A DNA stretch of 64,000 bases from Candidatus Bathyarchaeia archaeon (GTDB taxonomy: Archaea > Thermoproteota > Bathyarchaeia > Bathyarchaeales > Bathycorpusculaceae). This document shows, one piece after another, positions 28,701 through 63,361 of this stretch. The translations under genes were made by a program, and so were the position numbers. Numbering within the stretch: position 1 is the stretch's first letter; the number at the start of each line of letters is the position of its first letter. The notes beneath the pieces were generated by a model. It saw nothing but the letters and a program-made list of their open reading frames with translations. It did no database searches and had not been told where the DNA came from. Where the stretch lies: contig JBEKXL010000005.1 of the NCBI GenBank assembly GCA_049512075.1, positions 69,847 to 133,846 on the forward strand, in the 5' to 3' direction.

Positions 28701-28845
28701 GCGCGCCGCTCTACATCGATCGAGCGACATTTGATCATGCTTTTAAAATCACACTCGAGCTTATGAAAAAACTAGATTATAACAATATTCTAGAGATAGG
28801 ATGTGGAAAAGCGGAATTTAGAACTTTCCCAATTATACCGCGCGC
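28701..28845 (+). pseudogene. Class I SAM methyltransferase fragment bracketed by (CG)n tracts
   Basis: NILEIGCGKAEF motif I only; GCGCGC at 28701 and CGCGCGC at 28839. Confidence 0.55.
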
Positions 28846-28919
28846 TCACTGCCCAGAAAACTCGAGGACAAAGGATATTCAGTTAGACTCGAAAAGGAGA
28901 GGTGGATCGTTTATGCATG

Positions 28920-29894
28920 CTAGTTTTCGTGAGTTGGCTCAGCGCTTTTTCTTCCAAACTTTTCTTTCTTGTACCATTTGATGAACATACGAAGCCCAGT
29001 CTCAAAGTCATATTCTGGTTTCCACCCAAGGATTCTCTTTGCCTTCCTCGTGTCTGCAACTAGCTTGTTAACCTCCCCAATTCTGGGTTTATCATGGATA
29101 GGTTTAATCTTTCCCTCTTTGCCACATAATCTAATGACCATATTGGCCAGGTCAAGTATGCTGACATCTTTGCCATAACCTATATTGACTGGCTCAAGGC
29201 TCGGTTTATGGTTAAGAATGAGGTCAAATGCTCTCACTATATCCTCTATATACGTGTAATCTCTTGTCTGCATACCCTTGCCATACACGATCGGTTGCAT
29301 ATTGCTCAGAACTCTCTTGGTGAACATTGGTATGACAGCCCCATACCCGCTGTCTCTTTGCCGAGGCCCAAAAACATTGAAGAATCTAGGTATGGAAATG
29401 TTCATACCATACGTCTTAACGTATGCGTTGCACATTCGATCAGCAGCTATCTTGCTGGCACCATAAGGATGAGGCGCGTCAAGGGGATGCTTTTCATCTA
29501 TGGGAATGTATTGAGCAGATCCGTATACCTCACTTGTAGAAGTATGAATCACTTTCTTCACGTCACGCGATCGAGCAATTTCCAGAACATTCTGCGTTCC
29601 CATGACGTTTATATCATAAGTAAGCTTCGGCTCAGCATATGACATATCTACGTGAACCTGCGCCGCAAGATGAAAGACCACGTCAATGTCTCTTACAGTC
29701 TTTTTCAAAAGAACAGCATCTCTGATGTCGCCTTCTATCAGCTTGAAATTCCGGTGGTCCAAAAGAGGCTTGACATTCGCTACATCACCACTCAAGAAAT
29801 TGTCCAAGCAGATCACTGAGTGGCCGTCTTTCGTATATTTCTCGCAAAGATGACTGCCGATGAAGCCTGCTCCGCCTGTTATCAGCATCCTCAT
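28920..29894 (-). CDS. NAD-dependent nucleotide-sugar dehydratase/epimerase
   Basis: TGGAGFIGS, HLAAQVHV, STSEVYG, YGASK, FNVFGPRQ. Confidence 0.9.
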   Translation of the reverse strand: MRMLITGGAGFIGSHLCEKYTKDGHSVICLDNFLSGDVANVKPLLDHRNFKLIEGDIRDAVLLKKTVRDIDVVFHLAAQVHVDMSYAEPKLTYDINVMGTQNVLEIARSRDVKKVIHTSTSEVYGSAQYIPIDEKHPLDAPHPYGASKIAADRMCNAYVKTYGMNISIPRFFNVFGPRQRDSGYGAVIPMFTKRVLSNMQPIVYGKGMQTRDYTYIEDIVRAFDLILNHKPSLEPVNIGYGKDVSILDLANMVIRLCGKEGKIKPIHDKPRIGEVNKLVADTRKAKRILGWKPEYDFETGLRMFIKWYKKEKFGRKSAEPTHEN

Positions 29895-29897
29895 TTT

Positions 29898-31022
29898 TCA
29901 TCTTTCCTGCTTTGTCGCGTTGTGTTCCTCTATAGCCTCTTCGTAAATTTGTTCCAGTTTCGCCATTTCCTTTGCGTAGTTATCCTTATCTTCGATTATC
30001 TGTCTATTAATCTTTCCAAACCTATTTCGCGTATCTTCATGTTTCAACAAGAAGATAATTTTCTCTGCGAGGGACTTCGGATCTTTAGCTGGAAAAACAA
30101 ACCCGTTTTCACCGTCGTCTACCCATTTCCTGTTGTCCGCCACGTCAGTGACAATTACCGGTAGTTCGCATGCCATGGCTTCAGCCGTACTAACGGAGAT
30201 ACTCGAATCTGAGAGTGACGTAGAAACATAAACGTCCGCGGCGCTTAGATAATCAGGAAGCTCATCATTTGATATATGGCCCATAAACTTTACATTGTTG
30301 GTGATGCCAAAAGAACGGGCCGCTGCCTTCAGTTTTTCTTCCTCTGATCCCTTGCCAGCTACCAAAAATGATGTTTCTGGGAATTCTTGCAGTACAGCCG
30401 GAATCGCTCTTATCAATGTTCCAACATCGTATATCGGATAGAAATTCCTTGAGCTTATCACTATTGGACTGGAGAGATCAAGTTTCTTCTTTACTAGCGC
30501 GCCACGTTCACTGTGCTTGAACTTGTTCATGTCTATCCCGAACTGAAACATTTTTATCTCTTGAGGTTTGACTCCAAGCTGCTGCATGCGCTCGGCGGTA
30601 TTGATACCGTTTGTCGTTATGACATCAGCCTTCTTCAAAGCGCTCTTAGCCAGCCTCTTCTTGACCCATCGAACCAGTCCCAGTTCAACACCTAAAGACA
30701 ACACGTCAGAACCCAGTGCCGTCAACACAAATGGATGGAAATCGGATTTTGATGCAAAATAGCCATAATTTGTCGCATAAATAGCATGAACCACATCCGG
30801 ATCTATTTCTTTCACCAGACTTCTTATTCTACCGACATAAAGAAGCTTCAATGGAAATGTCTTGTTACGAGCCATGACGGGCATCTTTATTCTGTGAACC
30901 TTCGCCCCTTGTATCTCTCCTTCTTCAAAACTTATGGCGTGCACTTCATGTCTCTTGACAAAAAAGCTCGCCAACCTGCGGGTATGAATGCTCGATGCGT
31001 TAGCCAAATAGCATATTCTCAA
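29898..31022 (-). CDS. GT4 glycosyltransferase
   Basis: GSDV, ADVYVSTS, EAMACELPVI, ENGFVF. Confidence 0.88.
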   Translation of the reverse strand: MRICYLANASSIHTRRLASFFVKRHEVHAISFEEGEIQGAKVHRIKMPVMARNKTFPLKLLYVGRIRSLVKEIDPDVVHAIYATNYGYFASKSDFHPFVLTALGSDVLSLGVELGLVRWVKKRLAKSALKKADVITTNGINTAERMQQLGVKPQEIKMFQFGIDMNKFKHSERGALVKKKLDLSSPIVISSRNFYPIYDVGTLIRAIPAVLQEFPETSFLVAGKGSEEEKLKAAARSFGITNNVKFMGHISNDELPDYLSAADVYVSTSLSDSSISVSTAEAMACELPVIVTDVADNRKWVDDGENGFVFPAKDPKSLAEKIIFLLKHEDTRNRFGKINRQIIEDKDNYAKEMAKLEQIYEEAIEEHNATKQER

Positions 31023-31617
31023 GTTTACACATCCTTCGACATTGCATGTCTAAATAACAAAACACGGACATAGAAAGCGACAAAGTATCGAATTCGGTAA
31101 AGCGTTTGAGTTCATACAGAATACTCTTCAACCTTCTGAATAGATTCTTACCATTACGAAACGCTCTCTTTACTGGCAACGCACTATCAAGATCGGACCT
31201 ATTAATAAATACTATTCGACAACCTGCACGTGCCAATTCCGCACGTGCATCAACGCCTAGTATCGTGTTAGTCCTTACCCCACTAGTGCGGTATATCAAC
31301 GTTTATTATCCCGTTTCTGAACACTGACAAGAGTCGAGATTACTGCTTGCACCATTCGGAAGATACGTAAGTGGCCTTTGTGCCCGGTCAAATGGCCTAT
31401 CGGAATTCGCGGATACCCCCCTGAGACAAGATTTAATTCGCGCGCGCTCCAAAGAACCGACTGAAGCCGAGACTTTGGCAATTGCATTATTTAAAAGCGC
31501 AGCAAAGGCCGAATTCGGATGCTTGAGCATGGATGATCATTTGAAGAGTGCTCTGAACTATTCTCCTGTGGTTAAGGGAAGCAGCAAATCGCATATAGAT
31601 CGAAGCCACAGTTTCAA

Positions 31618-33126: not shown

Positions 33127-33242
33127 ATTCTCAAAACCAAATTGCCAAAGTTCCTTCTGCAAGAAGAAGGGGTGCAATGAAATTCACTGCGCAAGATTAA
33201 TTATGTACAAACATTAGGCATAAACAGCGGAAAGGGCTTGAG

Positions 33243-36857: not shown

Positions 36858-36858
36858 A

Positions 36859-43729: not shown

Positions 43730-43913
43730 CAACATCGAAATGTTACAATGCAACATTACATCTGACGTTACAAATAAACGGAACGGGTTAGCTCTGAACG
43801 GAGGTCCAGGCCCGTTTTCTTCATGGTTTGTTACAATCCACATTACATCGGACATTACAAACAAAAAGAGGGGGGGGCAAAAACAAAACATCGCGATCTT
43901 GTAAAACATAATG
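43730..43913 (+). repeat. Dispersed intergenic repeat, copy A
   Basis: Two ACATTACATC(T/G)GAC(G/A)TTACA motifs ending at 43772 and 43859; homologous to 49027..49142 and 63624..63809 in reverse orientation. Confidence 0.9.
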
Positions 43914-44082
43914 CGCGCGCGCTTGAAAAATGCACGCACTCCGAACGGTAAAGCCCATGCTTCCGTAATGCACGGTATAGGGCAGCATAGCGCGTGTGTA
44001 GAGTGAATAAAAAAGTGCGAAAGAGTCTAAGATGCGTCAGCAGAGTTTAGTGTATGAAACGCACACAATGAACTCTGAGATT

Positions 44083-46071: not shown

Positions 46072-46197
46072 ATGAGGCTTGTATTTATTGATACGCTCAT
46101 TTATTTACTTTTAGACTTAGACCATCTCGGTCACGTATATACTTAGCTTTTCTTTCCAGGGGACAAAGAAATAGTACCGCGCCCCCGCACGATTCAG

Positions 46198-46572: not shown

Positions 46573-46674
46573 TCACTCATATTGTCTTTTGCAAAAACCA
46601 ATATTTAAGAATCCTCAAATTTCGCCAGTAAATACTAGTGGGAGCGCCGTCTAGACTCAAGCCTGCCATAAGAT

Positions 46675-48735: not shown

Positions 48736-49026
48736 ACCGTCCCTTAAGCTTCTGAAGAACCTGCTACAACGTCATATACTCTATCTAGCGCGCGCAGGCA
48801 AGTGGATAGCTGCAGTACAAAACGACATTATAGAAGGAAAACTCGGCAAAAGAAGTCGTTGAACGAGCAGGGGCAAAATACCCAAAGACTTTTCGTAATG
48901 AAAATTCCTAAAATGCATATATGTTGCTCTAAAAAGTGGCGCGCGGCTTGGTGCCCGCGTTGTCAATTCAAGTATGCTGAAACACCTTTTGCATCATAGC
49001 CTTTCGAAGTCGCTTCCCTTTTTCAC

Positions 49027-49142
49027 TTGTAATGTCAGATGTAATGTGTATTGTTACAAACCATGGAGAAAACTAGGCTGGACTACTGTTCAGAGTTGAC
49101 TCAGCCCGTTTATTTGTAATGTCAGATGTAATTTTCATTGTA
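49027..49142 (-). repeat. Dispersed intergenic repeat, copy B (core only)
   Basis: TGTAATGTCAGATGTAAT at 49028 and 49115 (87-bp spacing), with a conserved spacer. Confidence 0.9.
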
Positions 49143-49297
49143 TTAGTCAGGGATTGTAGGTAGTGTTGCCCGTGGCACAAAGCCAGAATGGTTAGTTTGG
49201 CAAGCTTACTAGCGCGCGCTTTTAAAAAGATGTTCCTGAAGAACCTGATAGAAGAAACCGTGAAATAATAAGAGTTCCAATACTGGATTGCGAGGGC

Positions 49298-49848: not shown

Positions 49849-49965
49849 GGGCCCGTAGCCCAGTCAGGATTAAGGCGTCGAACCGCAAACCGGTGCGCAA
49901 GCCTCCGGGCATCAAGCATGGAAGAAAGCCGGAGAACAGGGGTTCAAATCCCCTCGGGCCCGCCA
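49849..49965 (+). tRNA. tRNA-Arg(CCG) with two BHB introns (29/30 and 37/38) and encoded CCA
   Basis: Removing 49881..49900 and 49909..49926 gives the anticodon arm TCGGC-CTCCGGA-GCCGG. Acceptor GGGCCCG/CGGGCCC; T arm AGGGG-TTCAAAT-CCCCT. Confidence 0.88.
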
Positions 49966-50668: not shown

Positions 50669-50952
50669 CTTTTCATCTCTCCCGTTATTTCATCGCAACT
50701 CGTTATTATCGCTTGCGCTCTTTTCCATTGCCTTGTTGTCTCAGGCTTTTACTCCATGTCCTGTTGGCGCTGGAAAGGCGCATGCTAACGCAGAATCGGT
50801 ACTGGCTTTGGCTATATGTGTGCGCACGGCAATCAGACTCTTACAGGATAATCAACCGAGGGGACTAATTCGGACTCCCAAAAAACTTGTGGTGCGCGCC
50901 AAAACTTATAAGACGTCACCCACCTAAAGATTCAGACAACGGAGCGATATGA

Positions 50953-51327
50953 ATGGCGAGACAGGAAAAAGAGAAGAAAGTCATGACGAAAGATCGCCTG
51001 ATAGGCATGCAGGTAATCGACAATGAGGGAAACGACGCTGGAACCGTTCAGGACATCGCATTCACCGTGGGAAAAGTGGGCATGACATTGATTGTTGAAA
51101 GCAAAAAGGGTGAAACCAAGGAAATCCCGTGGGAAGAAATCCAGGCTGCAGGAGACTTCGTCGTTCTGAAGCCCGAAACGGCACAAGCACGACCTTTTGG
51201 TGGCCAACCGATGGGCCAACAGCTTCAGCAGTCACAAACGCCAACCTGCCCAACGTGCGGAGGCCCTCTGACCTACATTCAGCAGTATCAACGATGGTAC
51301 TGTTACAAAGACAAGAAGTACGTCTAA
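50953..51327 (+). CDS. PRC-barrel protein with a C-terminal Zn-ribbon-like tail
   Basis: LIGMQVIDNEG...GTVQDI...IPWEEIQAAGDFVVL; Gln-rich linker; CPTCGGPLTYIQQYQRWYCYKDKKYV. Confidence 0.85.
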   Translation: MARQEKEKKVMTKDRLIGMQVIDNEGNDAGTVQDIAFTVGKVGMTLIVESKKGETKEIPWEEIQAAGDFVVLKPETAQARPFGGQPMGQQLQQSQTPTCPTCGGPLTYIQQYQRWYCYKDKKYV

Positions 51328-51802
51328 GATGCGCAAAGAAGGAACATGAAAATCTACACTTTTTGTGTATGACTAGTTTCTGTGTTGCTCTGAAAGAAAA
51401 AAGGGTTTGTTTAAGGATATTTTTTGCAGTTGGTGTAGTACCAGCGGTTGTATTGTGCACGTAGGTCAACCGCTTTCCGCAGGTTTGCGCGCGCATAGAA
51501 CAAAACTGTTGACGACGAATAGTCCTGTGAACTTCACCATGTCCCTCCACGACAATAGCCGGCGCAGCAGCGCTAAGGACAATGACACCGAACAGGAATC
51601 CTGTCAGACTCGCGGCAAGAGAATCATGCAAATAACCTTCAGTGAGACTCATTCAGACCACCACTGCATCACAATGAACTTTTTTTCACGAGTTCTACGT
51701 ATTTAGATTTTATCACGCGCTTCACTGACTATGGAGATGCACCAAAAAATGTTAAATACTCAACGACGAAATATGGTGCATTAGCGACTTGAGGAAATTT
51801 GT

Positions 51803-52426
51803 ATGACTGAAAAAGCAGAAGCCTACTTGATTGACTACATTGCTGTCGGAGTGATAGGATTTGTCATCGGACAAGCAATCGCAAGCGTCGGTGGATTCCA
51901 GAGCTTATTCTCAGGTGTGGCAGCAGCAACATTCAGGTACGTAGGTCCCGATTGGGGAAGAATAGTAGGAGCTGACGTTATCACCGGCATCTTCGCGTTC
52001 CTCCCAGCGGGTTTCCTGGCCGGATACCTTTGTTATAAGCTGCTCAAAGCGGAAGGAAAAATGGAAGGCTTAGCAGGCGGCTTTATGTCCTTCATAGTAT
52101 ACTTGATAATTACCTTGATAGTGACGCTCGCCCAAACTGGCATCTGGGGAAACATGGGATTAGACTTAGGAATAGGAGTGGAGCTTTGGGTCGTGCTCAT
52201 GGTGTTTGCTCTGATATTCTTCCCGATAGGAGGCTTCCTTGCAGGCATGATTCACGAGATGAAAACGCCGATGCCATCCTTCCTGAGAATGCAATTCCAG
52301 AGAGGCCCTGCAGCTCCTCCACCTCCTCCGGGCACGGCAACAACATGCCCCACCTGCGGCGGACCATTAAGATACATCGAGCAATACAAGAAATGGTACT
52401 GCGACAAAGAAAAAAAATACGTTTAG
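51803..52426 (+). CDS. Membrane protein with a poly-Pro linker and the same C-terminal tail
   Basis: About 4 TM segments, PPPPP, CPTCGGPLRYIEQYKKWYCDKEKKYV. Confidence 0.8.
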   Translation: MTEKAEAYLIDYIAVGVIGFVIGQAIASVGGFQSLFSGVAAATFRYVGPDWGRIVGADVITGIFAFLPAGFLAGYLCYKLLKAEGKMEGLAGGFMSFIVYLIITLIVTLAQTGIWGNMGLDLGIGVELWVVLMVFALIFFPIGGFLAGMIHEMKTPMPSFLRMQFQRGPAAPPPPPGTATTCPTCGGPLRYIEQYKKWYCDKEKKYV

Positions 52427-52524
52427 CAAACAACCATTCCTTTTTTCTTGTTGATACGCGCGCGCAAACGGGCGCGACGACCTGCTGATGAGAGCGCAAC
52501 AGTAGGTGAGAACCAAAAACCACG

Positions 52525-53103
52525 CTAATACTGGCCTGTCAGTTTGTGCATCAGCTCCATTTCGAGGGTTTCCTCTTCTATCTTGAAGGTTTCAGGCTCG
52601 TCCTTTTTCAGTATGGCCTTCAGTTCTTCAGCCGTAAGCTGAGTCACGAGTCGGAGTATCTCTCTTTTTGCGTTTTCAAGATGCTTCCGCAGCAGCTGCT
52701 TGTCTTGGTACACCGCTCCTGAGAGTTGGCATATACTCTTCATCTTGACGAACCATTCAATCTTTCGTGTCTTGACGTTTATGTCGAAAGTGATGGGTCC
52801 CGCCACGCAAGTTTCGGGTTTCACGGGGTGAATGACACACTTTTTCGTTTTCTTGTCATGAAACACGCAGTAGCCGCCAACAACTAGCCTTGGAAAAACA
52901 TACTCCGTCCGCTGGAACGAGTTTGAGATGGATATTCTGTTTTTCTTCAAGTAAGCCTCTATGAGTTTTCTGCGTTCAGGCGTCACTGGCGGTGTCGTAT
53001 CGTTGCAGCAGGAATAGCTGGTTCCGCAGTTGCTGCATACGTCGAAGAAATTGCTCTGTCTTTTGTTTGCATTTTTGCTCAACGTTTGGCTCTCCGTTTG
53101 CAA
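52525..53103 (-). CDS. YkgJ/CxxCxxCC family cysteine-cluster protein
   Basis: CSNCG..SCC, CVFH, CVIHPVKPETCVAGP. Confidence 0.8.
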   Translation of the reverse strand: MQTESQTLSKNANKRQSNFFDVCSNCGTSYSCCNDTTPPVTPERRKLIEAYLKKNRISISNSFQRTEYVFPRLVVGGYCVFHDKKTKKCVIHPVKPETCVAGPITFDINVKTRKIEWFVKMKSICQLSGAVYQDKQLLRKHLENAKREILRLVTQLTAEELKAILKKDEPETFKIEEETLEMELMHKLTGQY

Positions 53104-53104
53104 G

Positions 53105-54286
53105 TCAGAAGTAGGGCCGATTGTCCATAAGGCTTTCTGCGAGCTTTGAATAGACGGTGATTACTGCTTCTCTGAAATCCGTTTTCTGAGTTTTCTTCTC
53201 CACTCTCTCGCGTATAATTTCCGACAGGCTCCCATTGTCTATTCTTTTCCTGACGATTGGCAGGTATTTCCTCTCTTGCCGCGAGGCGTTTTTCCACGCG
53301 ACCGCGTATAGAGATTCGCAGACAGCGCGTGCGGAGCGCCCGCTCGGTCGTGCGTTGAGGCCTTCGGCTACAACGGAGTTCAAATCGTTCACTAGGACTT
53401 CGTGGGGTAGAAGCTGCAGGTTTTCGTTGAACACTCCTCGCAGCAACGCTCTGATAAAGCAGCCTATCGCTACGTCGGACTTGATGCATTCCTGTTCGTC
53501 CATCACTCGTATTTCCAGTGCCTTTCTGTCAAACCTGAAGATTACGCCTCGAGAGTTAATCCATTCCTTGTGAAGGAGCAACGGGTCTGCGCCGGCCCGA
53601 GCCATTTCTGAAGAGTATCTTTCGATTATTTCGGTGCGGTATTGGCCGAAGGAGTTCACATATTCCGGGATTATGTCCCCGGTGACTGAGGGAATCTCAC
53701 GTTGGTTCAACCGGTAGAAGTGCAGTCTGTTGTCGACGTCTTCTCCGAACATGCCTTCGCAGATGGGGGATGAAGCTGCGAACGTGGGCACATAGGGGAT
53801 GATGTTGGCGAGAAGATTGTGCATTTTAACGCCGTCTTGCTCGTTCCAGTATGGAAGGTTCAGCTGGAAGCTTTGAATGTTCAGCCACCCGTGCTGGTTG
53901 AGGTTGAACAGTCTGCTGTAGGCCTCGTAAATTTGGCGGTGACGGTGCGGCCAGATGCCCGTTTCTTCAAGCCTCAGCAGAGGGTGCATTCCAGTTCCAA
54001 GGAGACGTGCTCCGTGTTTTCGCCGCAGAAAATCCGAGATCAACAACACCGCGGCTTGCATATTCTCCTCGAAGGTTTCCGGTAATCTGAAGGGCGCGTT
54101 GGGTTTGATTTCCATAACGTGCAATTGCAGCTCTTTTCCAAAAGTGAAGTCACCTCGTTCTACAGAGTTGACTATACGCCCACGAAAATCTTTCAGTATC
54201 TCGTCAACAATTGGTAAGACTCTTAAATCATTGTCAACCACTGAAAACTCGTGCTCTGGGCCTAGAACCTCAAGGGTTTTGTACGT
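53105..54286 (-). CDS. Glutamate-cysteine ligase family 2 (GCS2) protein
   Basis: GPEHEF upstream of the track start, KELQLHVMEI, GTGMHP, QSFQLN, AASSP, NSRG, EIRVMDEQ. Inferred start at ACG 54286. Confidence 0.8.
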   Translation of the reverse strand, partial: TYKTLEVLGPEHEFSVVDNDLRVLPIVDEILKDFRGRIVNSVERGDFTFGKELQLHVMEIKPNAPFRLPETFEENMQAAVLLISDFLRRKHGARLLGTGMHPLLRLEETGIWPHRHRQIYEAYSRLFNLNQHGWLNIQSFQLNLPYWNEQDGVKMHNLLANIIPYVPTFAASSPICEGMFGEDVDNRLHFYRLNQREIPSVTGDIIPEYVNSFGQYRTEIIERYSSEMARAGADPLLLHKEWINSRGVIFRFDRKALEIRVMDEQECIKSDVAIGCFIRALLRGVFNENLQLLPHEVLVNDLNSVVAEGLNARPSGRSARAVCESLYAVAWKNASRQERKYLPIVRKRIDNGSLSEIIRERVEKKTQKTDFREAVITVYSKLAESLMDNRPYF

Positions 54287-54427
54287 ACAAGCTCCTCTTA
54301 CATTCTACTGTTTTCAAAGAATCGAATATAAGCCTGCGGATGATCCTGGGCGACTCGCTGTCCAATTTGTAAAGACGTGCCCCCTGAAACCAAGAGCTTT
54401 TCCTGATTAGAAAGTGAGGTTTTGTCT

Positions 54428-55012
54428 CTAGGTCATATGTTGGTTGATGAGTCTTGCCATATCTATTGCTTCGAGGCTGTATCCACAGTTTGGGCAGATT
54501 TTGAGTACTTCCTCGGATTTTGATCCAACTTCTAAAGGAGTCCCGCAGTGACAGCAGTGGTAGGTCAGTGTTTGTCCTCTGTCAACCAGCTGTCTGATAA
54601 GGCTGTTGAGATCATCACGTAAAGCAGTTATCTCTTCTTGTTTTTGTCGGAGATGCTCTGCTCTTTCTGGCATTCCGAGTTTTTCACACATCTGAGCTGC
54701 TTCGTCGTAGCGTCCAGTTTTTTCAAGATTGTCAACAGCCTTCTGCTCGCTCTCAACTTCTTCTTTATAGTAAGCGCATTTTTCTGCTTGAACAAAATAG
54801 TCCATGTATCCAATCGAGGTTGGCGTCAGTTTGCTTCCAGTTAATTCGCAAGAATCTTTGTCAAAGTGTGTGCAATCATCGCAGTTTTTCTTTTTGCCGT
54901 ATTCCTCTTTGATTTTTGCGTAACAGTCAGCACAAAAAGTCTTCTGTTTTCCATCTAACGTCAAGCTCAGTCCGGAGCCTGAAAATTTCTTTCCACAGGC
55001 ATCGCATCGCAT
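54428..55012 (-). CDS. Multi-Zn-ribbon protein with a TPR-like helix
   Basis: CDAC, CADC, CDDC, CCHC, CPNC; LEKTGRYDEAA. Confidence 0.65.
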   Translation of the reverse strand: MRCDACGKKFSGSGLSLTLDGKQKTFCADCYAKIKEEYGKKKNCDDCTHFDKDSCELTGSKLTPTSIGYMDYFVQAEKCAYYKEEVESEQKAVDNLEKTGRYDEAAQMCEKLGMPERAEHLRQKQEEITALRDDLNSLIRQLVDRGQTLTYHCCHCGTPLEVGSKSEEVLKICPNCGYSLEAIDMARLINQHMT

Positions 55013-55133
55013 GTTCTATCTTTCTTATTCTAGCATAATCATCTTTATTTGTCTTATAGTCGGCCTCGGATGGCAGTCTGAAGCAAAGTCTTATACAATC
55101 TGGGTCAAAACTGACTATTTGTGGGTCTGAGGG

Positions 55134-55883
55134 TTGCGCATGGTGAAATATGAGCGCAGAAGCAAGACGTCAAAACCCTTTGTGAGTTTTTGGGAATCGC
55201 TTACGAGCAAGGAAGGGGCAAGAGAGAGGGCGCGTTGTGTCTTGGAACCTATAAATGCATATCACAAACCGGCGAAGAAGATATTGGAAATAGGTTGTGG
55301 GATTGGAGAGGTCTTGGTCAATCTTCCCCGGAGATACGTTGTGTATGGTTTGGACATTGAAAGGGGTTACATTGAGGTCTGCAGAAGGAGGATCCTGAGG
55401 GGCAAGTTCTTTGTTTCCAGCATGCACAACTTCAAGATTGACGAGAAATTTGATGTTATATTCTCCGCTAACGATGCAATCAACTTTCTGGAAGACTTTG
55501 CCCAGTGGAAATCAACATTCAAAACAGTAAATGAGCATCTCGACAGAGATGGGCTGTTCATCTTTGACGTTTATACTCCAAAAATGCTGAGAGATACGCT
55601 TCATTGGTTGGAAAAATACAATAGGTCCACTTCATCGGTTAAGGAATTCCCAAAAGGATACTACTATGACAAAGAGACGGTGAAGGGCAATACACTGATT
55701 TGGGATTCCAGAATCTTTGAAAAACTCCCGAATGGACTCTATCAGCTTAACAAATACAAGTTCAAAGAGACAATATACCCCGTTGCAAAGATGAAATCTG
55801 CTCTCTCCACGCATTTCGATATCGTTGAAGCCAATTTGAGAGAAGAAGGCAGGAAGATTCTGTTTATCTGCAGAAAGAAGTGA
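55134..55883 (+). CDS. Class I SAM-dependent methyltransferase
   Basis: ILEIGCGIG, GLD, FDVI, HLDRDGLFIFD. Confidence 0.85.
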   Translation: MRMVKYERRSKTSKPFVSFWESLTSKEGARERARCVLEPINAYHKPAKKILEIGCGIGEVLVNLPRRYVVYGLDIERGYIEVCRRRILRGKFFVSSMHNFKIDEKFDVIFSANDAINFLEDFAQWKSTFKTVNEHLDRDGLFIFDVYTPKMLRDTLHWLEKYNRSTSSVKEFPKGYYYDKETVKGNTLIWDSRIFEKLPNGLYQLNKYKFKETIYPVAKMKSALSTHFDIVEANLREEGRKILFICRKK

Positions 55884-56185
55884 AAGATAGAACACATGCC
55901 CTTTCTCTTTTTCCAGAAGAACTTCTCTGCACCCTCTTTTTCTACTCCTGGCAAGAGCAGCGCGCTGACAATAAGAACACCCGATATTCCTCCAGTAATG
56001 TTTTCTTGAAAAACATTTTGTTCAATCAGCAATAGTGTTGGATTAGAGCTAGTGTTGGTGAGGAGAGCAGTAGACGGAGAAAGGAGAGAGTTCTACCGTC
56101 TCCCACACACCATGGACAACTATTGAGCAGACACACTCTTAGTACTATGTTTTAGAACAGAGAATCCAAACTGTAGAACACCCTC

Positions 56186-56467
56186 TTACCACAAATCTGA
56201 GTCCCGCATTCCAGGCATTCTGTGGAATTCCTGAAACCATTGTTGAGTGCGAAACTTGAAGGAGACTGATTTGCCCAGAAGTTGTGTTTTTCCTCCTTCC
56301 TTCTTTGCTCCGTTCTTCATCATGTACAATCCAACAAGCAGGAAAACAATGCTGCCGAAGATTTCAGGTGTCAAGTATCGCAAGTCCAAGCCTGTGCTAA
56401 TCGCAAGCGTGTACCAGAATATGTTGAACAGGACGCAAACGGAAATAGCTGAAAATATCAACCCCAC
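56186..56467 (-). CDS. Small membrane protein or remnant
   Basis: Two hydrophobic segments followed by GLYMMKNG; start uncertain. Confidence 0.4.
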   Translation of the reverse strand: MGLIFSAISVCVLFNIFWYTLAISTGLDLRYLTPEIFGSIVFLLVGLYMMKNGAKKEGGKTQLLGKSVSFKFRTQQWFQEFHRMPGMRDSDLW

Positions 56468-57060
56468 CAGATAACTGTCTTTTCACCCTCTAACACAGTG
56501 TGTCACCTTGTAACATGTCTGTTGAACGGTCTCAGTTCTCGTGACTTGTGGAAGAATCAACAATGGAATTGAACGCGCGAGATTGACATGAAAAACAAGG
56601 CGTATCTCAGCCTTCACAGCCGAGATTCAAGGAGACGATGTTACAGACTGATTTTCTGTAATATAGTATGAGGAAGGGCAGAGGGGCAGTATTTCTCTTT
56701 TTGAGCATTGGCAATTTAGTTAAGGCTTATCTCAGGAGCTGGCAGGCTTGCTGTTGCGCGCACGCGTGTTCCTAAAATGGTTGAAAATGGTCTTCAGTCC
56801 GTTCTTGCATGTACAGGTTCATTATGGATTTGCTGGATGAGCGTGTTTTAGCTCTGCCCAAGGAATAGAAACTATTATATACCAATTTCGGGACAAGGCG
56901 GCGCGCAAAATAGTGCCACACAAATTATAAAGGAACGCAATTTTCAGTTCCCCCTTTTTCTCATGCGCGTTGAAAAAACGATCTTCTGGACAGATAGAAT
57001 TCCAAAGCTCACCGCAGGCTAAACTCTGGAGTTTGAAAAGCCAGGGTTCTTTGCTATATG

Positions 57061-57174
57061 TTAAGGGTTTCTCCATTTGTCGGGGTTCTTGTATTCTACC
57101 TTTGGGCCGTCCTGCCTGATTGCGTCCAGTGTCTTTAGGAAGTCCTCTCGTGAGAGCCTTCTCCTTCTCCGCAT
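57061..57174 (-). CDS. Candidate 37-aa microprotein with a YKNPDKW motif
   Basis: MRRRRRLSREDFLKTLDAIRQDGPKVEYKNPDKWRNP*; TATA-like CTTATAT upstream. Confidence 0.5.
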   Translation of the reverse strand: MRRRRRLSREDFLKTLDAIRQDGPKVEYKNPDKWRNP

Positions 57175-57240
57175 CCCTAAGCCTCAACAAGTTTGTAAGC
57201 CTTGAATGGATATAAGCGAAATTGCGATAACGCTAGTATG

Positions 57241-57411
57241 TCAAAAACAGAAACATGCGACTCCCATGTACAGGTTGAAGGCTAGGAAGCTGAGCTGAAA
57301 GGTGGCCCATTTGTCGGGGTTTTTGTAATTCAGCTCTTGGCCTACATCAAGCTCCCGAATCAACTCCGTAAGGCGTGAAAACCAAGATCCGGCTTTTCCG
57401 AAGTTCTGCAA
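57241..57411 (-). CDS. Candidate 56-aa microprotein or fragment with a YKNPDKW motif and hydrophobic tail
   Basis: (TTG)QNFGKAGSWFSRLTELIRELDVGQELNYKNPDKWATFQLSFLAFNLYMGVACFCF*. Confidence 0.4.
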   Translation of the reverse strand: MQNFGKAGSWFSRLTELIRELDVGQELNYKNPDKWATFQLSFLAFNLYMGVACFCF

Positions 57412-57537
57412 TCGCCCAGGCGCGCGAATAGAAGATTCCTCTAGAACTAGAATCCATGATTCTAATATATCTCTTGCGTACAGAACCCGAACCAGAAAGG
57501 AGAAGCTGGGGAACCAGCAAAATCGTCAGAGTGATTA

Positions 57538-59763
57538 ATGCGCATGGCTAAAAGCACTAGCTCATTTGTTCATACTGGTCAGCCACAAAAAGCTTGGACT
57601 GCGAATGAGGCGAATAATAACGTGCCCGTCTGCTTTGAACAGGAGGCATCCAAACAGACGAGGAAGTTGCATCAGACCATAGTCAACCTGGAGAATGAAA
57701 AACGAACTCTTCTCGGCGAAATGAAAACTCTTGAAGCCAAAGCAATGCGCGGGTGGACAGGGATGAGTCGCAGACAGGTATATTCCATCGTAATGCTGGG
57801 AATCATTATGACTGCGATAGTCATTTTTGTTCCTCCGTTTTTCATAGTTCCTTTTGCTTCTGGAAACCTGCCGCTCACAACTCTGGACAAGCAAACAAAG
57901 CTTGTCTCTTACCTGCGAGAAGTTCAATCTTATCCAAACATCTTTCTCGCTGTTCACGGTTACGATCACAAGTGTCCCATCGATGGCTCGACTGGGTACG
58001 AGTTTCTATGTCCCACCGGGCAGCTTTCGCTTGAAGAAATAAACCGACGAATTGAAGCTGGCATCGACATATTCGAAAAGTGCGGTCTGGAAATTGACAC
58101 ATACGCTTTTCCAGGCCAATATTATGATCAAAGAATACTCTCCGTCCTAAGGAATTACGCCCCCACAGCCTCAGTATATAACAAGACAAAGCTGGTAGGA
58201 CTCGGGTTGACAGCAAATTCCTCCCTGACAGATATTATCGATTACTACGGTTTCAGGGAATACACTTGGATGTGGCGCGACGGTGTTTCCGAAAAACAAT
58301 TCCAGGACGCGCTGAATCAGCTTTACCAGGACAAGCCTAGCCTACTTTTGGTACACGTCCAAGACATAACAAACCAGACACTCAACCTGCTTAAAGAATA
58401 CGCCCTTCTTCAAGGTAACGCAGGAATTATTCGGCTGGACGACATAACATTTGACAGCCATGTGGAAGCGACCAAAAAAGTGGTAGACCTCGCGATTGCG
58501 TATAACGTCAGCCTAGTCTTGGCAGTAATCCCGGCTTCTCCGTACACAGGGGGAAGCTCAAACAGTTTCTTTTCTGACACCATGATTGACGCTCTCTGGG
58601 TGATTTCAACAAGTCTGTTCGTTTTCCCTATAGTCGTCATGCTACCGTGGGCGCTTATTTTCAAGATGAAAAAGCGGAAGCCTTATGCAAAGTGGAATCC
58701 TCACTGTCCCATGGTCAGCATAATACTCCCCGCCTACAACGAGGAGAAAACTATAGCTAAATCCATCGAACGAAGTTTGAGCCAACGCTACAAAGGCGGC
58801 ATCGAGGTCATCGTCGTAGACGACGGAAGCACAGACAAGACTTATGATATCGCCAAAACATACGCTGACAAACATGCTAACGTAAGAGCCATTCGACTGG
58901 AGAAGAATCAAGGCAAATCACACGCTCTGAACATGGGTTTTGCACAGGCAAAAGGTGAAATCTCGGTGTTCTCCGACACGGACAGTGTCTTGGCTCCCGA
59001 AGCCATCTCCAGGATGATTTCTCACTTCAAAGACTCTGAAGTTGGCATGGTAGCCGGGATGGTTGTGGTAGGAAACGAAAAAAACTTGTTGACACGCTTG
59101 CAACAGATCGAATATCTTCTTAGTCAGACGATTATTCGATTTTGTCAATCATCACAGAAGAACGTTCTAATATGTCCCGGCGCTTGCACGGCCGTGAGGA
59201 CGGATATAACAAGAAAAATCCCTGTGACGGACAGGACCGTAACCGAGGACGCAGACTTCACGTTTTCGGTCCGGAAAGAAGGATGGAAAATCTGCCAAGA
59301 ACCTGAATCGGTCAGCTATACAGAAGCCCCAGGAAATCTGAGAAGTTTAATAACCCAAAGAAAAAGATGGCTGTACGGAAGTTTGCAGACCATCGCAATT
59401 CATAAGTGGGCTGCAAAAGAAGGAAACCCTTGGGTCTTAAAAGCTTGGCTTGAATGTTTCCTAAGTCCATTCGCCCTGCTTTTCATTGCATCTCTTCCCT
59501 TGCAATACCTTTTCCTGGGTAACAGTTTCCCCTTGTTTCTCCTCACGTATGGACTGCTGCCCTTGACCATTCTGGGAATCAGCGGAGCCATAGGCGTAAG
59601 ACTCTTCAACAAAGGTGAAAAATCAAAACTCGCCTTTCTGATGCCGCTTTATGCTGCATACCAGTTGATGATGAACCTGCTTCTGGTATGCATGGTCTTA
59701 GCCTTCGTAACCAAGAGAGGAATACACCTTACACGCGGAGGAAAGATCATCCACGCGATCTGA
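57538..59763 (+). CDS. DUF2334-like deacetylase fused to a processive GT2 (PgaC/IcaA/CesA-like) synthase
   Basis: HGYDH and IRLDD; PAYNEE, DDGSTD, GKSHALN, DTD, TED, QRKRW; C-terminal TM helices. True start may be about 57763. Confidence 0.88.
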   Translation: MRMAKSTSSFVHTGQPQKAWTANEANNNVPVCFEQEASKQTRKLHQTIVNLENEKRTLLGEMKTLEAKAMRGWTGMSRRQVYSIVMLGIIMTAIVIFVPPFFIVPFASGNLPLTTLDKQTKLVSYLREVQSYPNIFLAVHGYDHKCPIDGSTGYEFLCPTGQLSLEEINRRIEAGIDIFEKCGLEIDTYAFPGQYYDQRILSVLRNYAPTASVYNKTKLVGLGLTANSSLTDIIDYYGFREYTWMWRDGVSEKQFQDALNQLYQDKPSLLLVHVQDITNQTLNLLKEYALLQGNAGIIRLDDITFDSHVEATKKVVDLAIAYNVSLVLAVIPASPYTGGSSNSFFSDTMIDALWVISTSLFVFPIVVMLPWALIFKMKKRKPYAKWNPHCPMVSIILPAYNEEKTIAKSIERSLSQRYKGGIEVIVVDDGSTDKTYDIAKTYADKHANVRAIRLEKNQGKSHALNMGFAQAKGEISVFSDTDSVLAPEAISRMISHFKDSEVGMVAGMVVVGNEKNLLTRLQQIEYLLSQTIIRFCQSSQKNVLICPGACTAVRTDITRKIPVTDRTVTEDADFTFSVRKEGWKICQEPESVSYTEAPGNLRSLITQRKRWLYGSLQTIAIHKWAAKEGNPWVLKAWLECFLSPFALLFIASLPLQYLFLGNSFPLFLLTYGLLPLTILGISGAIGVRLFNKGEKSKLAFLMPLYAAYQLMMNLLLVCMVLAFVTKRGIHLTRGGKIIHAI

Positions 59764-60137
59764 CAACAAAGCAATTCTGCTCCAACATCATGGAGTCGTT
59801 TGAACCAGAACTTGTTTTGCAGCCTTCAAAACGCGTCTGGGCCGAACCAGATACGCGCGCGAGGCAAACACTCTAATGACGCACGGAAACAGTTCAAATT
59901 CTGAAACCTTCGCGTTCCACATAATACTCCATCCGTTTCGTTTACGCGCGCGCTATTACCCGCTCGCAGTATGTGCTCGTTGAGCTGCTAGACGCACAGC
60001 CGAATGCTTGACTTTCAGAGCTGGTCCAACTACTGAAGAACCCTGCCCAACTCGCGCAGTCTGAAGCTTGGGTAGAAGATAGTTTCATAAGTCTTAAAAA
60101 GATCACGGGTTGAGAATACTCGAGGGAGAAGGACAGA

Positions 60138-61511
60138 ATGTCATCTGTTCGAAGCAATAGGAAAGTCCGAGATAGTCTTATCATAACAACAATTCTTATG
60201 ATAGCGTCCGTTGGCTTGCTGATACAGGTCAAGTCAGTATCGGCCGCAACATGGGATCCCTCCCTCGGATGGGATTTCGAGTGCCACACGAACACTCACC
60301 CAAGCCTCATTGACATGAGTACCGCCGCGATAATCGCGGAGCTGCAAGCCGTCAACACCGCTTTTCAATCACACGGCTACCCGCCTCCGCAGCACATGGC
60401 ATACCCCTACGGCGACTACAACTCAACCGTCGAAGGCATCGTATCCCGATACCGAAAGTCAGCGCGAACCGTCTCAGACTACATGACAAAATATCCAGTG
60501 ACAAACTGGTACGAGATGAACGCTGCCCAACTCGTCGCCACCACAACAAAGACCGACATCACCAACTGGGTAGCTCAATGCATCTCCACCAAATCACTAC
60601 TCCTCATATTCACCCACGATGTTTCAGCAAACCCGTCTGAATACGGCTGCACACCAGCCATGCTCACATATCTCCTAGACAACCTCGTCACACAGCAAAA
60701 CGCCGGCAAAATCGTCGTCATGACCATGGCCCAAGCATACGACTACTGGCACAACGCCGCAACTCAACCCAAACCAACCGTCGTAGTTAGCTTCGACGAT
60801 GCCCACGAAAGCGACTACCTTGTAGTCTACCCACTCTTCACGGCGCGAGGCTTGAAAGGCACAAGCTACATCGTCACCAGCTATATCGACTGGCAAGACC
60901 AACTCAGCTGGGCCGAAATCGCAAAAATGAGAACAAGCACTATAACCGTTACTGCTCCGAACGGCGGACAGAGCTGGGTGAGGGGCACGGTTCACTCAAT
61001 AACGTGGGCTTCTACGGGCAGCCCCGGGGCCAACGTCAAGATTGAGTTGTTGAAGGGCGGCGTGCTGAACATGGTCATATCGTCGAGCACGGCGAATGAC
61101 GGTTCCTACAGCTGGACCATCTCTTCCACGCAGACGCTTGGAACTGATTACAAAATAAGGATCACGAGCGCAAGCAATTCGGCGATCACCGACTCCAGCA
61201 ACAGCAACTTTGCCATAACTGTGGGGGCATTGACCGTTACTGTTCCGAACGGAGGACAGACATGGGCGAGAGGTTCCGTCCACACGATAACGTGGGCTTC
61301 TACGGGCAGCCCCGGGGCCAACGTCAAGATTGAGTTGTTGAAGGGCGGCGTGCTGAACATGGTCATATCGTCGAGCACGGCGAATGACGGTTCCTACAGC
61401 TGGACCATCTCTTCCACGCAGATGGTAGGAAGCGACTACAAGATCAGGATAACGAGCACGTCAATCACGGCGATCACAGATTCTAGCGACAGCAACTTCG
61501 CCATCAGCTAA
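60138..61511 (+). CDS. Secreted CE4 polysaccharide deacetylase (permuted) plus two Ser/Thr-rich Ig-like repeats
   Basis: Signal peptide; HTNTHP, AYPYG, FTHDV, then SFDD; two copies of TVT.PNGG..W..G....ITW...D.S...F.I. Confidence 0.85.
   Translation: MSSVRSNRKVRDSLIITTILMIASVGLLIQVKSVSAATWDPSLGWDFECHTNTHPSLIDMSTAAIIAELQAVNTAFQSHGYPPPQHMAYPYGDYNSTVEGIVSRYRKSARTVSDYMTKYPVTNWYEMNAAQLVATTTKTDITNWVAQCISTKSLLLIFTHDVSANPSEYGCTPAMLTYLLDNLVTQQNAGKIVVMTMAQAYDYWHNAATQPKPTVVVSFDDAHESDYLVVYPLFTARGLKGTSYIVTSYIDWQDQLSWAEIAKMRTSTITVTAPNGGQSWVRGTVHSITWASTGSPGANVKIELLKGGVLNMVISSSTANDGSYSWTISSTQTLGTDYKIRITSASNSAITDSSNSNFAITVGALTVTVPNGGQTWARGSVHTITWASTGSPGANVKIELLKGGVLNMVISSSTANDGSYSWTISSTQMVGSDYKIRITSTSITAITDSSDSNFAIS
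60999..61422 (+). repeat. 136-bp identical intragenic repeat (60999..61134 and 61287..61422)
   Basis: Direct comparison; 288-bp (96-aa) period. Confidence 0.9.
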
Positions 61512-61610
61512 AGGGCACGCAACTGAGTGAAGCCTAAGCGGACCATCCTTTTCCACTCTTTTTCTATATCGCCTTGTTCACTATGAGTGCTGTGGCTACC
61601 ACCACTCTAA

Positions 61611-61892
61611 AGCGCGTGCGCTAACACATATTTCGAGAATGGAGGACCCTTCGCCGAGGCAATAGGGAGTTTCCAAGAGGATTTGGGCGAGATGAAAATG
61701 GTGAGGAACAGAATAGCGCACTGTTCGCGGCATTCAAGAACCAAATTTGAGGACTTTGTCCGCCAAGAACTCGGTCATGTCCCGATCTCCCGCCCAGGAG
61801 AGCTACTGTCAGCCAAATTTGCCACAAATCAGACTTATTTTGAGCACTACAGCAATATCTTGAAAGGCCTAGGCAAGTTTATTGTTAAGTGA
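61611..61892 (+). pseudogene. HEPN-domain C-terminal fragment
   Basis: The open frame from 61611 contains MVRNRIAH (R-x4-H). It is preceded by an in-frame TAA and begins at GCGCGTGCGC. Confidence 0.5.
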
Positions 61893-61990
61893 AAGAATCG
61901 AGCATGTGTATAGAGTTTCTTCTGTCAACTTGAGCGTCGGTTAATCTGGGTCTCCTTCTTATTGAGATAGACCTTCAGCCAATAACACGT

Positions 61991-63361
61991 GTGCTAACAG
62001 AGTTTCGTGACGCTCAAATACTTCTTGGGCCGAAAACGAGGGCAACTCTAGCGCGCGCGTTGGTCAGCACAACAACCTTCAGCGAGATTAAGGGTTGGAT
62101 AGACACCTGTATTGCTCGCAAGGCGCTGCTGCACATATTCACGCATGATGTGTCATCGAAGCCGTCTGAATACGGTTGCACTCCGGCAATACTTACGCAA
62201 ATGTTGGACTATCTGGTTCAGAAACAAAGTGCTAGCCAACTGACGGTTATGACGGTGGCCCAGGCATACGATTACTGGAGCACCGCCACGGCGGGCAAAG
62301 CAACCGTGGTCGTTAGCTTCGACGACGCAAACGAAAGCGACTACACAGTCGTCTATCCCCTCTTCGTAGCACGAGGGTTGAAGGGCACGAGCTACATCGT
62401 CACGAGCGTCATAGACGAATCTGACCAGCTGACCTGGACTGAGATAGCCACGATGAGAGGAGCCCGTCCCACTTACGCCGTTCATTTGGAGTCCAAGCAG
62501 AATTCGAGCGCAACCGTCAACCTTGGAACCATAACTCTTGGCGGCACTTCGCACAGTCTTCCGAGCAACATTTCTGAAACTGCTGAGACTTATCAGGCAC
62601 AGTTCTACGCAGCATCAGGATACGCTTTCGATCATTGGGAAACAACGGGCAGCGTCACCGTAACGAGCGCAACTGTCAACCCGGCAACGGTGACTGTCAA
62701 AGGCGCTGGAACACTGAGGGCCGTTTACAAGGTCGGCACATCTGTTCTCTTTGCAGACGGCTTTGAGTCCGGCACTTTCAGCACTTGGACGGGCACAGGA
62801 GTTACCTCCGGTGAGACCACAGCCGTCGTCAAAACGCTCCCACACCAGGGAGCCTATTCTGCCAAGTTCACGTCAAACGGCGCCGGCGGATTTGAGTATG
62901 CTTACTGTTACAAGAGCATTGCTTCTTCAGGCGAGCTCTACGGCAGCGGATACTTCTATGTGTCCAAGTCAGGGATTGCGAGTGAGGGTAACCGTTTCTT
63001 CCCAATCGTGTTCACTGCTGGAGGCAACCCTGTGGCGTATGCTGGTTGGGTAAGGGTGGGCGGCGTCGTCAGGTGGAACTTGCTCGTCAGGGATGGAACA
63101 GGCTGGGCGACAGTCCACTCTGCGACTAGTCCCCTGCTGAACAGGTGGTACACTGTTCAGCTTCACTGGAAGAACAGCGCTTCAGGCGGTGTTGGCGAGC
63201 TTTGGGTGGACGGCACACTAGTATGCTCCATCACTGGCAAGAACACAGCCGCGTACGGAAACGCGAATCAAGCGCGGTTCGGGCTGCCCGAACTCTACAA
63301 CTGCGGTGCCACTTCAGTCTACTGCGATGACTGCACAGTATCCAGAACAAAGATAGGATAG
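61991..63361 (+). pseudogene. 5'-truncated paralog of the permuted CE4 deacetylase, with B-repeat-like and ConA/LamG-like domains
   Basis: Homology to 60138..61511 starts at about 62060 (LVSTTT...FTHDV...SFDD). No signal peptide and no HxxxH. GYAFDHW, LFADGFESG, NRWYTVQL, ELWVDG. Confidence 0.7.

Follow-up and report, generated by a model that had tools for sequence, protein, structure and literature searches.

Why do short runs of alternating C and G stand where genes and repeats break off? This question is raised by a stretch of 64,000 nt (hereafter, the window; G+C 47.1%) from a Candidatus Bathyarchaeia archaeon, which corresponds to G000:C5:69847-133846 in a genome of 2.73 Mb and 86 contigs (G000). 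When a tract is defined as a strictly alternating C/G run of at least 6 nt, the window contains 28 tracts, 22 of which lie between genes according to crude gene calls. A reading made earlier from the letters alone (the sequence-only reading) had proposed that such tracts sit at truncation breakpoints as scars of deletion or repair. The analysis presented here partly supports this interpretation, which overlooked that the tract is a feature of the whole genome and recurs across the class. A defined short palindrome is found at DNA joints far above chance, and at many of these joints it has appeared de novo. As for its origin, we put slightly below an even chance on the tracts being scars of DNA joining that are written by the joining process itself, as a de novo self-complementary GC filler at the ends.

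The evidence that carries this result comes mainly from a comparison of G000 with a sister species, G002, which together with G001, G003 and G004 complete the set of five genus genomes. From 1.52 Mb of G002 that were sampled, 994 kb of unique DNA were aligned at an identity of 94.3%, and the comparison is that of a single species pair. Clean indels, in which one side has at least 40 nt and the other at most 40 nt, gave 81 candidates, of which 78 were refined. A tract-like run marks the joint of the short allele in 32 of these 78, whereas about 3.4 are expected. As controls, zones drawn at random from the alignment show such runs at a rate of 1.0%, those restricted to its intergenic parts at 2.9%, and intergenic zones taken as a whole at 4.3%; the excess holds even against the last and most generous of these controls (41% versus 4.3%, P = 2.5e-23). 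Runs of at least 8 nt are at the joint in 17 of the 78 events, as compared to 0.14-1.5% in the controls. Thus, the claim that tracts coincide with joints of deletion or rearrangement above chance is borne out in this species pair. When G000 is compared with itself, 501 of 3132 ends of intergenic repeat homology are at most 5 nt from a tract; for intergenic positions drawn at random (n = 5000), the figure is 3.5%.

Whether the tract at a joint is present in the parental sequences or is added to them was left as a question by the sequence-only reading, and for most joints the answer is that it is not templated. In 21 events (12 with the short allele in G000 and 9 with it in G002), the tract is at the short joint and at neither boundary of the long allele; the answer differs for the remaining joints, which are considered below. 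The DNA absent from the short allele in these 21 de novo events measures 79 to 4655 nt (median 638) and is single-copy in 16 of them. In 10 of the 21, a boundary falls inside an open reading frame (ORF) of at least 150 codons that runs into the shared flank, as against 7 of 37 in the repeat-flanked and featureless classes described next (P = 0.03). For instance, in event 51, 316 nt have been lost from a 1060-codon frame and a 10-nt filler has been added, and a 957-codon frame stays open. In general, fillers consist of the tract alone or of the tract plus 1-5 extra letters, and the flanks often supply some of the C/G letters of the run. Captured or extra DNA may also be bracketed by tracts, as in events 56 and 77 and at 48788-49219 in the window.

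The rest of the indels are distributed among three other classes. In 9 events, a tract is seen at the long-allele boundary alone, at one (7) or both (2) of them. Another 15 have a direct repeat of at least 7 nt without a tract and are ordinary mobile-element or att-type insertions, and 22 have none of these features. The fifteen insertions of the repeat-flanked class (events 1, 2, 5, 18, 20, 24, 60 and others) measure 0.7-20 kb, and their direct repeats 7-29 nt.

The sequence-only reading had also taken the tracts for a sign of local erosion. This view does not survive a look at the complete genome, as the motif is its top over-represented word and recurs in other families. In effect, G000 contains 1445 alternating C/G runs of at least 6 nt, 581 of them of at least 8 nt. 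The octamer GCGCGCGC is found at 646 sites, 14.5 times its order-3 Markov expectation, and ranks 1 of all 8-mers. The lengths of the C/G runs are not geometric (669 runs of 6 nt, 195 of 7, 284 of 8, 186 of 9, 105 of 10, 3 of 11, 2 of 12 and 1 of 13), whereas in the other five dinucleotide alternations the numbers drop smoothly and geometrically. The usual form of the motif is A(GC)4T or A(GC)5T, which is palindromic. The phase that starts with G and ends with C is seen in 342 tracts and the opposite one in 49; by form, there are 250 of GCGCGCGC and 90 of GCGCGCGCGC versus 34 of CGCGCGCG and 15 of CGCGCGCGCG. The letter before the run is an A and the letter after it a T in 58% of cases each, and the flanks are random past two letters.

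These tracts are strongly concentrated outside genes. According to crude gene calls, 500 of the 581 longer tracts are intergenic, 9 straddle the end of a gene and 72 are wholly genic; thus, 509 (88%) are non-coding or straddle a gene end in a genome of which just 21% is non-coding. Their overall intergenic density is about 1 per kb, with 0.74 per kb in divergent, 0.95 in tandem and 0.98 in convergent spacers. This similarity across spacer types gives no hint of a function as promoter or terminator.

Once present, the tracts behave as neutral sequence, with no sign of selection. There are 103 tracts of at least 8 nt in well-aligned unique DNA, of which 41 are identical in the other genome, 22 are one letter off, 8 are two letters off, 8 differ by more and 24 have gaps. 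In 7 of the 103, a gap of at least 6 nt lies opposite the tract and the flanks are intact, so at least these are pure small insertions of 8-12 nt; examples are AGCGCGCGCG within ...GAAG|CTTCG... and CGCGCGCG within ...TGCGG|ATACTG.... Identity between the species is found for 19 of 61 tracts of G000 and 22 of 42 of G002, against 56%, 53% and 50% for random intergenic 8-, 9- and 10-mers, respectively. One-letter variants occur at about 55-63/Mb for each transition and about 28-38/Mb for each transversion, and the perfect form at 237/Mb in G000. Two other sources of the fillers were considered and rejected. Copying from elsewhere in the genome was discarded, as fillers of 10-26 nt occur 1-3 times only, the exceptions being short ones that consist of nothing but the common motif. 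The same applies to a master copy for the recurrent filler TAGCACGCGC, since all transition variants of the tract are about equally common in both genomes (55-63/Mb) and decay accounts for it.

A side observation concerns the direction of these differences. At 19 sites, a perfect tract of G000 has a single mismatch in G002, and the reverse is true at 3 sites (P = 0.0009). This might be due to more rapid decay of the tracts in G002, to tracts that G000 has gained recently or to conversion in favour of the perfect form.

Could the tracts be an artefact of assembly, amplification or binning? The genomes are all metagenome bins, and GC-rich palindromes can disturb sequencing; the sequence-only reading had accordingly named an assembly or amplification chimera as its principal alternative. 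Nevertheless, the region was recovered in 24 runs, which belong to 18 studies on peat, wetland and sediment, and contigs from three studies different from the probable source (X2, X3 and X4) cover 48200-48998, 56647-61028 (X4 from 56650) and 61393-63400 with 0 differences. Further cover is provided by X2 and X3 at 50905-56672 and by X4 at 50714-55429 and 55826-56667. In total, 13 tracts of the window are bridged (48788, 48939, 51487, 52457, 55960, 56574, 56756, 56901, 57420, 59854, 59945, 61612 and 62051), that at 55960 by X2, X3 and X4 alike, so as far as contigs can show they are not assembly chimeras. The 41 tracts that are identical at orthologous places in another species, and the recurrence of the same form in the five genus genomes and in other families, also speak against an artefact, which we consider extremely improbable.

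The tracts of the window that matter for what follows are these (positions in the window):

19146..19155, GCGCGCGCGC: solitary, intergenic, outside the range covered by the sequence-only reading.
25003-25012 and 31439-31447: other such tracts.
28701..28706, GCGCGC: opens a 96-codon frame (28691-28981) with a G-x-G motif like that of S-adenosylmethionine-dependent methyltransferases (ILEIGCGKAEF, seen by eye).
28839..28845, CGCGCGC: within the same 96-codon frame, at the second fragment boundary of the sequence-only reading.
43913..43922, GCGCGCGCGC: cut point of repeat copy A (43739-43912).
48788..48795, GCGCGCGC: opens a series of three tracts that delimit two unrelated sequence modules within a single intergenic region.
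48939..48945, GCGCGCG: left end of a multi-copy repeat of about 260 nt (48946-49211).
49212..49219, GCGCGCGC: truncated right end of the repeat copy 48946-49211; other copies continue as '...CTTACTtcgccgttgccgtc'.
51487..51494, GCGCGCGC: solitary, intergenic; bridged by X2 and X3 (50905-56672) and X4 (50714-55429).
52457..52465, CGCGCGCGC: joint of a derived deletion of about 1.3 kb; to its right, just the last ~16 codons of the lost gene; bridged without any difference by X2 and X3 (50905-56672) and X4 (50714-55429).
56901..56906, GCGCGC: right terminus of a miniature transposable element of the ISx type (about 56619-56906; ISx is described below), with inverted repeat I3, a terminal match at C5:126746(-) and multi-copy matches.
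57420..57426, GCGCGCG: solitary, intergenic.
59854-59861: further tract near 59945.
59945..59953, CGCGCGCGC: solitary, intergenic; bridged by X2 and X3 (56647-61028) and X4 (56650-61028).
61612..61621, GCGCGTGCGC: degenerate tract at the head of a frame of 93 codons (61611-61892) that lacks a start codon and contains an RNRIAH motif (seen by eye).
62051..62059, GCGCGCGCG: point at which the second polysaccharide-deacetylase-like paralog (ORF 61991-63361) is truncated on its 5' side; bridged by X2-X4 (61393-63400).
63442-63449: further tract near repeat copy C.
63563..63571, GCGCGCGCG: 61 nt outside repeat copy C.
63876..63881, GCGCGC: left terminus of an ISx-type element that runs past the window end, with a terminal match at C5:133728(+), 'GCGCGC TGCCTTGTCCCGAAATTGGTG'.

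Every site named in the sequence-only reading does contain a tract, with 6 nt at 28701, 7 nt at 28839 and 57420, 8 nt at 48788 and 51487, 9 nt at 59945 and 62051, 10 nt at 43913 and an imperfect one at 61612. Two of its four main cases can be followed by alignment. In the first, BLASTP similarity of the second deacetylase-like paralog (61991-63361) to the first one (60138-61511) starts at residue 21, which corresponds to residue 129 of the first, with 68% identity. The DNA similarity starts directly after the 62051 tract, so that protein and DNA agree on the truncation point, and the part absent from the second paralog contains the deacetylase domain (PF01522, 1.5e-10). In the other case, repeat copy A matches copy C (63632-63801, inverted) as far as ...CATAATG at 43912, and the tract begins at 43913, just as had been claimed; moreover, in the orthologous region of G002 the repeat extends over 184 nt, to which 22 nt including the tract correspond in G000 (event 17). 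By contrast, for the fragments at 28701-28839 and 61612 only the tracts stand. The methyltransferase and HEPN identities given to them rest on motifs read by eye: no relevant Pfam match is obtained at E<=1, no paralog is found in G000 or G002, and Atlas gives weak HEPN leads alone (0.77-0.81).

Other sites show how modules change between tracts. The repeat of about 260 nt has 46 matches in G000; the internal position at which a copy breaks off varies widely among copies, and a tract of 8-10 nt is found at the cut, sometimes at both ends. The orthologues of the 48788 spacer in G002, G003 and G004 all have tracts, with very different DNA in between, and the one in G002 contains a 352-nt miniature element. 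At 52457, the flanks of the G000 joint enclose about 1.3 kb, including a gene, in both G002 (L030) and G004 (L014); the left boundary in G002 is just 'cgcgc', and the tract in G000 is 4 nt longer. When polarised via G004, this joint is read as a derived deletion.

Some additional features of this part of the genome were observed along the way. The second half of the window is a region of cell-surface polysaccharide and glycosylation genes (28920-31022, 44332-47925 and 57538-63361), which encode glycosyltransferases, epimerase/dehydratase, deacetylase-like and lyase-like proteins and whose synteny with relatives is patchy. Within the first deacetylase-like gene, two tandem units of 272 nt (60945-61504), 88% alike and 288 nt apart, correspond to repeated Kre9/Ig-like domains. 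The repeat family (48946-49211, 43739-43908 and 63632-63801) bears 'TGTAATGT' words, which often adjoin runs of C or G; this 8-mer is found 167 times, versus 52.5 expected, and depth over the family is 5-12 fold higher in other samples. At 49877-49927, a contig in runs X2, X3 and X5 swaps 49 nt for the 11 letters CCGGCCTTCGG, a population-level change without a GC tract. As for affiliation, one protein of the window is placed by Atlas among Thermoplasmatota, and AmoA gave no match, nor did its control anywhere.

How far does the motif extend beyond this genome? The five genus genomes have 646, 168, 460, 253 and 447 sites of GCGCGCGC. In 26 other relatives, the number is 0-53, save in one genome with an equally high control. 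In the class, enrichment was taken as at least 7 copies of AGCGCGCGCT and at least 5 times the reversed control, and by counts tallied by hand from tables it is seen in 31 of 301 genomes, with a patchy distribution. Among them are G089 (131 versus 2 in the control), G105 (119 versus 1), G111 (106 versus 5), G080 (94 versus 0) and G243 (83 versus 2), which come from four other families; G105 and G111 belong to one genus of family f26. G100 (65 versus 0) and G153 (63 versus 0) are also rich in tracts. In G089, which is repeat-poor and belongs to another family, a 342-kb sample has 31 tracts of 8 nt, 9 of 9 nt, 6 of 10 nt and none longer. Here, 34 of the 46 are in the G-start/C-end phase, 31 have an A before and 28 a T after. 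In this sample, no recurrent sequence is found beside the tracts, and there are 21 self-matches only.

As a candidate source of such sequences, G000 carries an insertion sequence (IS) of the IS5 family, here called ISx (1109 nt, C32:7469-8577), whose transposase has DDE_Tnp_1 (PF01609, 6e-17) and DUF772 (PF05598) domains. Both of its ends read GCGCGC-TG(G/C)CTTGTCCC, mostly with an A before. The same ends are found in miniature inverted-repeat transposable elements (MITEs) of about 220-480 nt, most of about 303 nt, and some tracts are plain ends of IS or MITE copies. In G000, G001, G003 and G004, the 1.1-kb copies inspected have both terminal inverted repeats (TIRs) with the GC run, and the transposase has at least 68% identity to that of G000; the best match in G002 has 45%. 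Outside the genus, the best transposase matches have 30-42% identity and are seen in 4 of 26 genomes, and the end motif is present in 99 of the 301 class genomes. The copies inspected show no consistent target-site duplication outside the GC run, which may be a part of the element or a duplicated target; an element that entered A(GC)4T at its centre and duplicated 4 bp would acquire exactly the flanks observed. For five full IS copies, no empty site was found, their flanks mapping to different contigs, and 12 MITE/IS pairs of G000 have no joint orthologue in the G002 sample.

If joining itself writes the tract, it might proceed as follows. Each 3' end would gain a short tail of one A followed by alternating G and C to about 10 nt, and two such tails would pair, as (GC)n is self-complementary; the tailing and pairing steps are those that we infer. 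Gaps would then be filled and sealed. In this way, any two ends could be joined, which would give deletions with a single tract, captured DNA with a tract on either side and bare insertions of 8-12 nt. Non-coding DNA would be the main place where the scars persist, until point mutations erode them. Such a model also accounts for DNA enclosed by two tracts, for bare insertions and for the presence of this form in a genome poor in repeats. With more reserve, we regard it as a plausible minority view that several lineages of the class have a dedicated end-joining system, in which a template-independent or self-templating enzyme adds A and alternating G/C tails, in effect a natural form of linker tailing.

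Several observations weigh against a joining process that writes its own filler. Beyond the 21 events without a tract in the long allele, 11 of the 32 joints are accompanied by a tract at one or both long-allele boundaries, so some events may be tract-to-tract recombination. Polarity is fixed by an outgroup for one event only: for events 17 and 19, G003 lacks the extra DNA and has flanks too diverged for the joint to be read, and for event 53 the left flank was matched in the outgroups and the right one was not. Repair genes were proposed as suspects by the sequence-only reading, and G000 does have a complete archaeo-prokaryotic non-homologous end-joining (NHEJ) operon (C16:5124-8191) with a LigD primase-polymerase (PF21686, 3.8e-83), Ku (PF02735, 1.3e-40) and a ligase-3'-phosphoesterase (PF01068, PF04679 and PF13298). 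The operon is also present in G002 and G004 and was not found in G001 and G003. It is the expected co-occurrence that fails, again by counts tallied by hand. Ku is unusually common in the class (89 of 301 genomes) and is found in 8 of 31 enriched genomes versus 81 of 270 others (Fisher P = 0.68), and G010 has the Ku/LigD operon and yet just 7 GCGCGCGC sites. A reverse transcriptase (RVT_1, PF00078) is not matched in G000 and occurs in 22 of 301 genomes, 1 of them among the 31 enriched; Prim-Pol, in 24 of 301 and 3 of 31, does not track the signature either, and a PolX palm was not found in the genus. As none of Ku/LigD, reverse transcriptase or Prim-Pol co-occurs with the signature, no enzyme can be named as the maker. 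In addition, we know of no polymerase that makes alternating GC tails of fixed length, and every genome compared is a metagenome bin, in which the absence of a gene or IS is weak evidence. Finally, A(GC)4T is the remnant to be expected from two ISx ends (A-GCGC... and ...GCGC-T).

This last point leads to the main rival, which fits the letters well and the distribution among genomes poorly. It holds that the tracts are footprints left when ISx or its MITEs are excised by cut-and-paste, the outer 4-6 nt of both ends being joined as A(GC)4-5T, and that the deletions come from imprecise excision or element-mediated deletion; we find this rather unlikely. In its favour, close copies of the resident IS are present in four of the five genus genomes, MITEs share its GCGCGC termini, the A...T flanks of solitary tracts equal those of the element ends, and the bare insertions of 8-12 nt resemble footprints. 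The GC run also appears to travel with the element, because at 10 of the 15 listed one-ended comparisons the element-less genome has no tract (3 have a tract and 2 a degenerate one). Across the class, the association is positive and weak: a TIR was matched in 10 of the 31 enriched genomes and in 40 of the 270 others (odds ratio 2.7, P = 0.02, uncorrected for kinship). However, genomes rich in ISx are not rich in tracts, since G196 has 52 TIR ends and 11 copies of AGCGCGCGCT versus 4 in the control, and G135 has 40 ends and 16 versus 14. Conversely, the tract-richest genomes G089, G080, G100 and G153 have no TIR match, and G089 has no repeat beside its tracts; here it must be kept in mind that IS copies are often missing from metagenome bins, so these absences are weak evidence. 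In G000, ISx-like ends adjoin no more than about 87 tract sides, none of the 78 events is a pair of filled and footprint alleles, and in event 77, the one clean filled/empty pair, the empty allele has no tract. Moreover, a deletion that keeps both element termini would require several steps.

Two further explanations are each possible for part of the events. In one of them, which we hold to be unlikely as a general account, tracts arise first by small insertion or substitution, and recombination, slippage or microhomology joining between two existing tracts of 8-10 bp then gives rise to deletions, inversions and captures and leaves one tract; the tract would be a hot spot of recombination and not a product of the joint. 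The 11 of 78 events with a tract at both the joint and the long-allele boundary fit it, events 11, 12, 25 and 28 look tract-to-tract, and at the intergenic density given above neighbouring pairs are common. It is at odds with the 21 events that have no tract in the long allele, 10 of which cut long ORFs and would need two prior frame-breaking insertions per gene; event 51 preserves the frame in one step, and the origin of the tracts is left unexplained. The other, still less probable, is that of a functional palindrome under selection, similar to HIP1 of cyanobacteria, that serves as a site of binding, methylation or uptake and spreads by substitution or biased repair, so that its placement at joints is incidental. 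The rank of the motif among 8-mers and its presence across the lineage would agree with this idea, and the asymmetry of 19 versus 3 perfect forms could reflect conversion. Nevertheless, the excess at joints persists against intergenic controls, conservation is below neutral, tracts are mostly non-coding without preference for promoter or terminator spacers, and many are insertional in origin. None of the 5 genus genomes has a C5-methyltransferase (PF00145) match above the threshold, N4-cytosine methyltransferases not having been searched.

The comparison with known systems can be made more precise. HIP1 (GCGATCGC) is reported to be conserved and quasi-periodic and to be linked to methyltransferases whose recognition site is its core (PMC5861425, PMC4390886, PMC13756078). 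Like HIP1, the tract is a single octamer palindrome with GC-rich ends that is hyper-abundant in patchy lineages. Unlike HIP1, the tracts are 88% non-coding and less conserved than neutral sequence, no C5-methyltransferase was found, and many are insertions at joints. Neither of the two HIP1 papers searched mentions GCGCGC or archaea (0 occurrences). REP elements, which are mobilised by RAYTs, combine an imperfect palindrome of 20-40 nt with a Y1 transposase, while the tract has just 8-10 nt. A search of the literature on the motif and on highly iterated palindromes in archaea, as far as it was surveyed, gave no description of it.

Other systems resemble the tracts in how they arise. Interstitial telomeric repeats of vertebrates are described as insertions at sites of double-strand-break repair, at colinear orthologous loci (PMC2246262, PMC7215372, PMC8537989). 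In both cases, a constant short repeat is inserted at otherwise colinear loci and is read, by the same comparative logic, as a by-product of break repair. The telomeric repeats are templated by telomerase RNA; by contrast, the tracts are palindromes of archaea with a length capped at 10 nt, and no reverse transcriptase was found in G000. Filler and N/P nucleotides are known from the junctions made in end joining by Ku/LigD NHEJ and TdT (PMC4797286, PMC8656161). Known fillers vary in sequence. The tracts are similar in that the joints of deletions carry extra letters, at times including some unrelated ones next to the tract, in a genome with a full Ku/LigD operon; they differ in that their filler has one defined form and in that the signature shows no association with Ku across the 301 genomes. 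Excision footprints of Tc1/mariner and P elements are short palindromic remnants of fixed size, sometimes with flanking deletions. The tracts are likewise palindromic, of fixed size and in non-coding DNA, and there is a resident IS with matching termini, but no filled/footprint pair was found, and element and signature are largely uncoupled among genomes. Lastly, the defence reverse transcriptase DRT3 is reported to make alternating poly(GT/AC) by protein-directed choice of nucleotides (PMC13314766). This is a precedent for an enzyme that writes an alternating dinucleotide repeat without a nucleic-acid template, although the dinucleotide is another one, the system is one of bacterial defence, its product is not known to enter the genome, and G000 has no reverse transcriptase.

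For annotators, these results mean that pseudogene fragments, MITE ends and module boundaries are to be expected at tracts. They also bear on the origin of highly iterated palindromes such as HIP1, which has been open since the early 1990s, as what is seen here is insertion at joints and not selected substitution. If the tracts are joint scars, they would point to an unrecognised end-joining chemistry with a defined product, and a GC-writing enzyme would be new enzymology. If linker tailing is the process behind them, it would drive deletion, capture of foreign DNA and intergenic turnover, and leave a datable scar for each event. As joint scars, the tracts would form an archive, within the genome itself, of what uncultured archaea have deleted, inserted and captured, and a gauge of their gene loss and DNA uptake.

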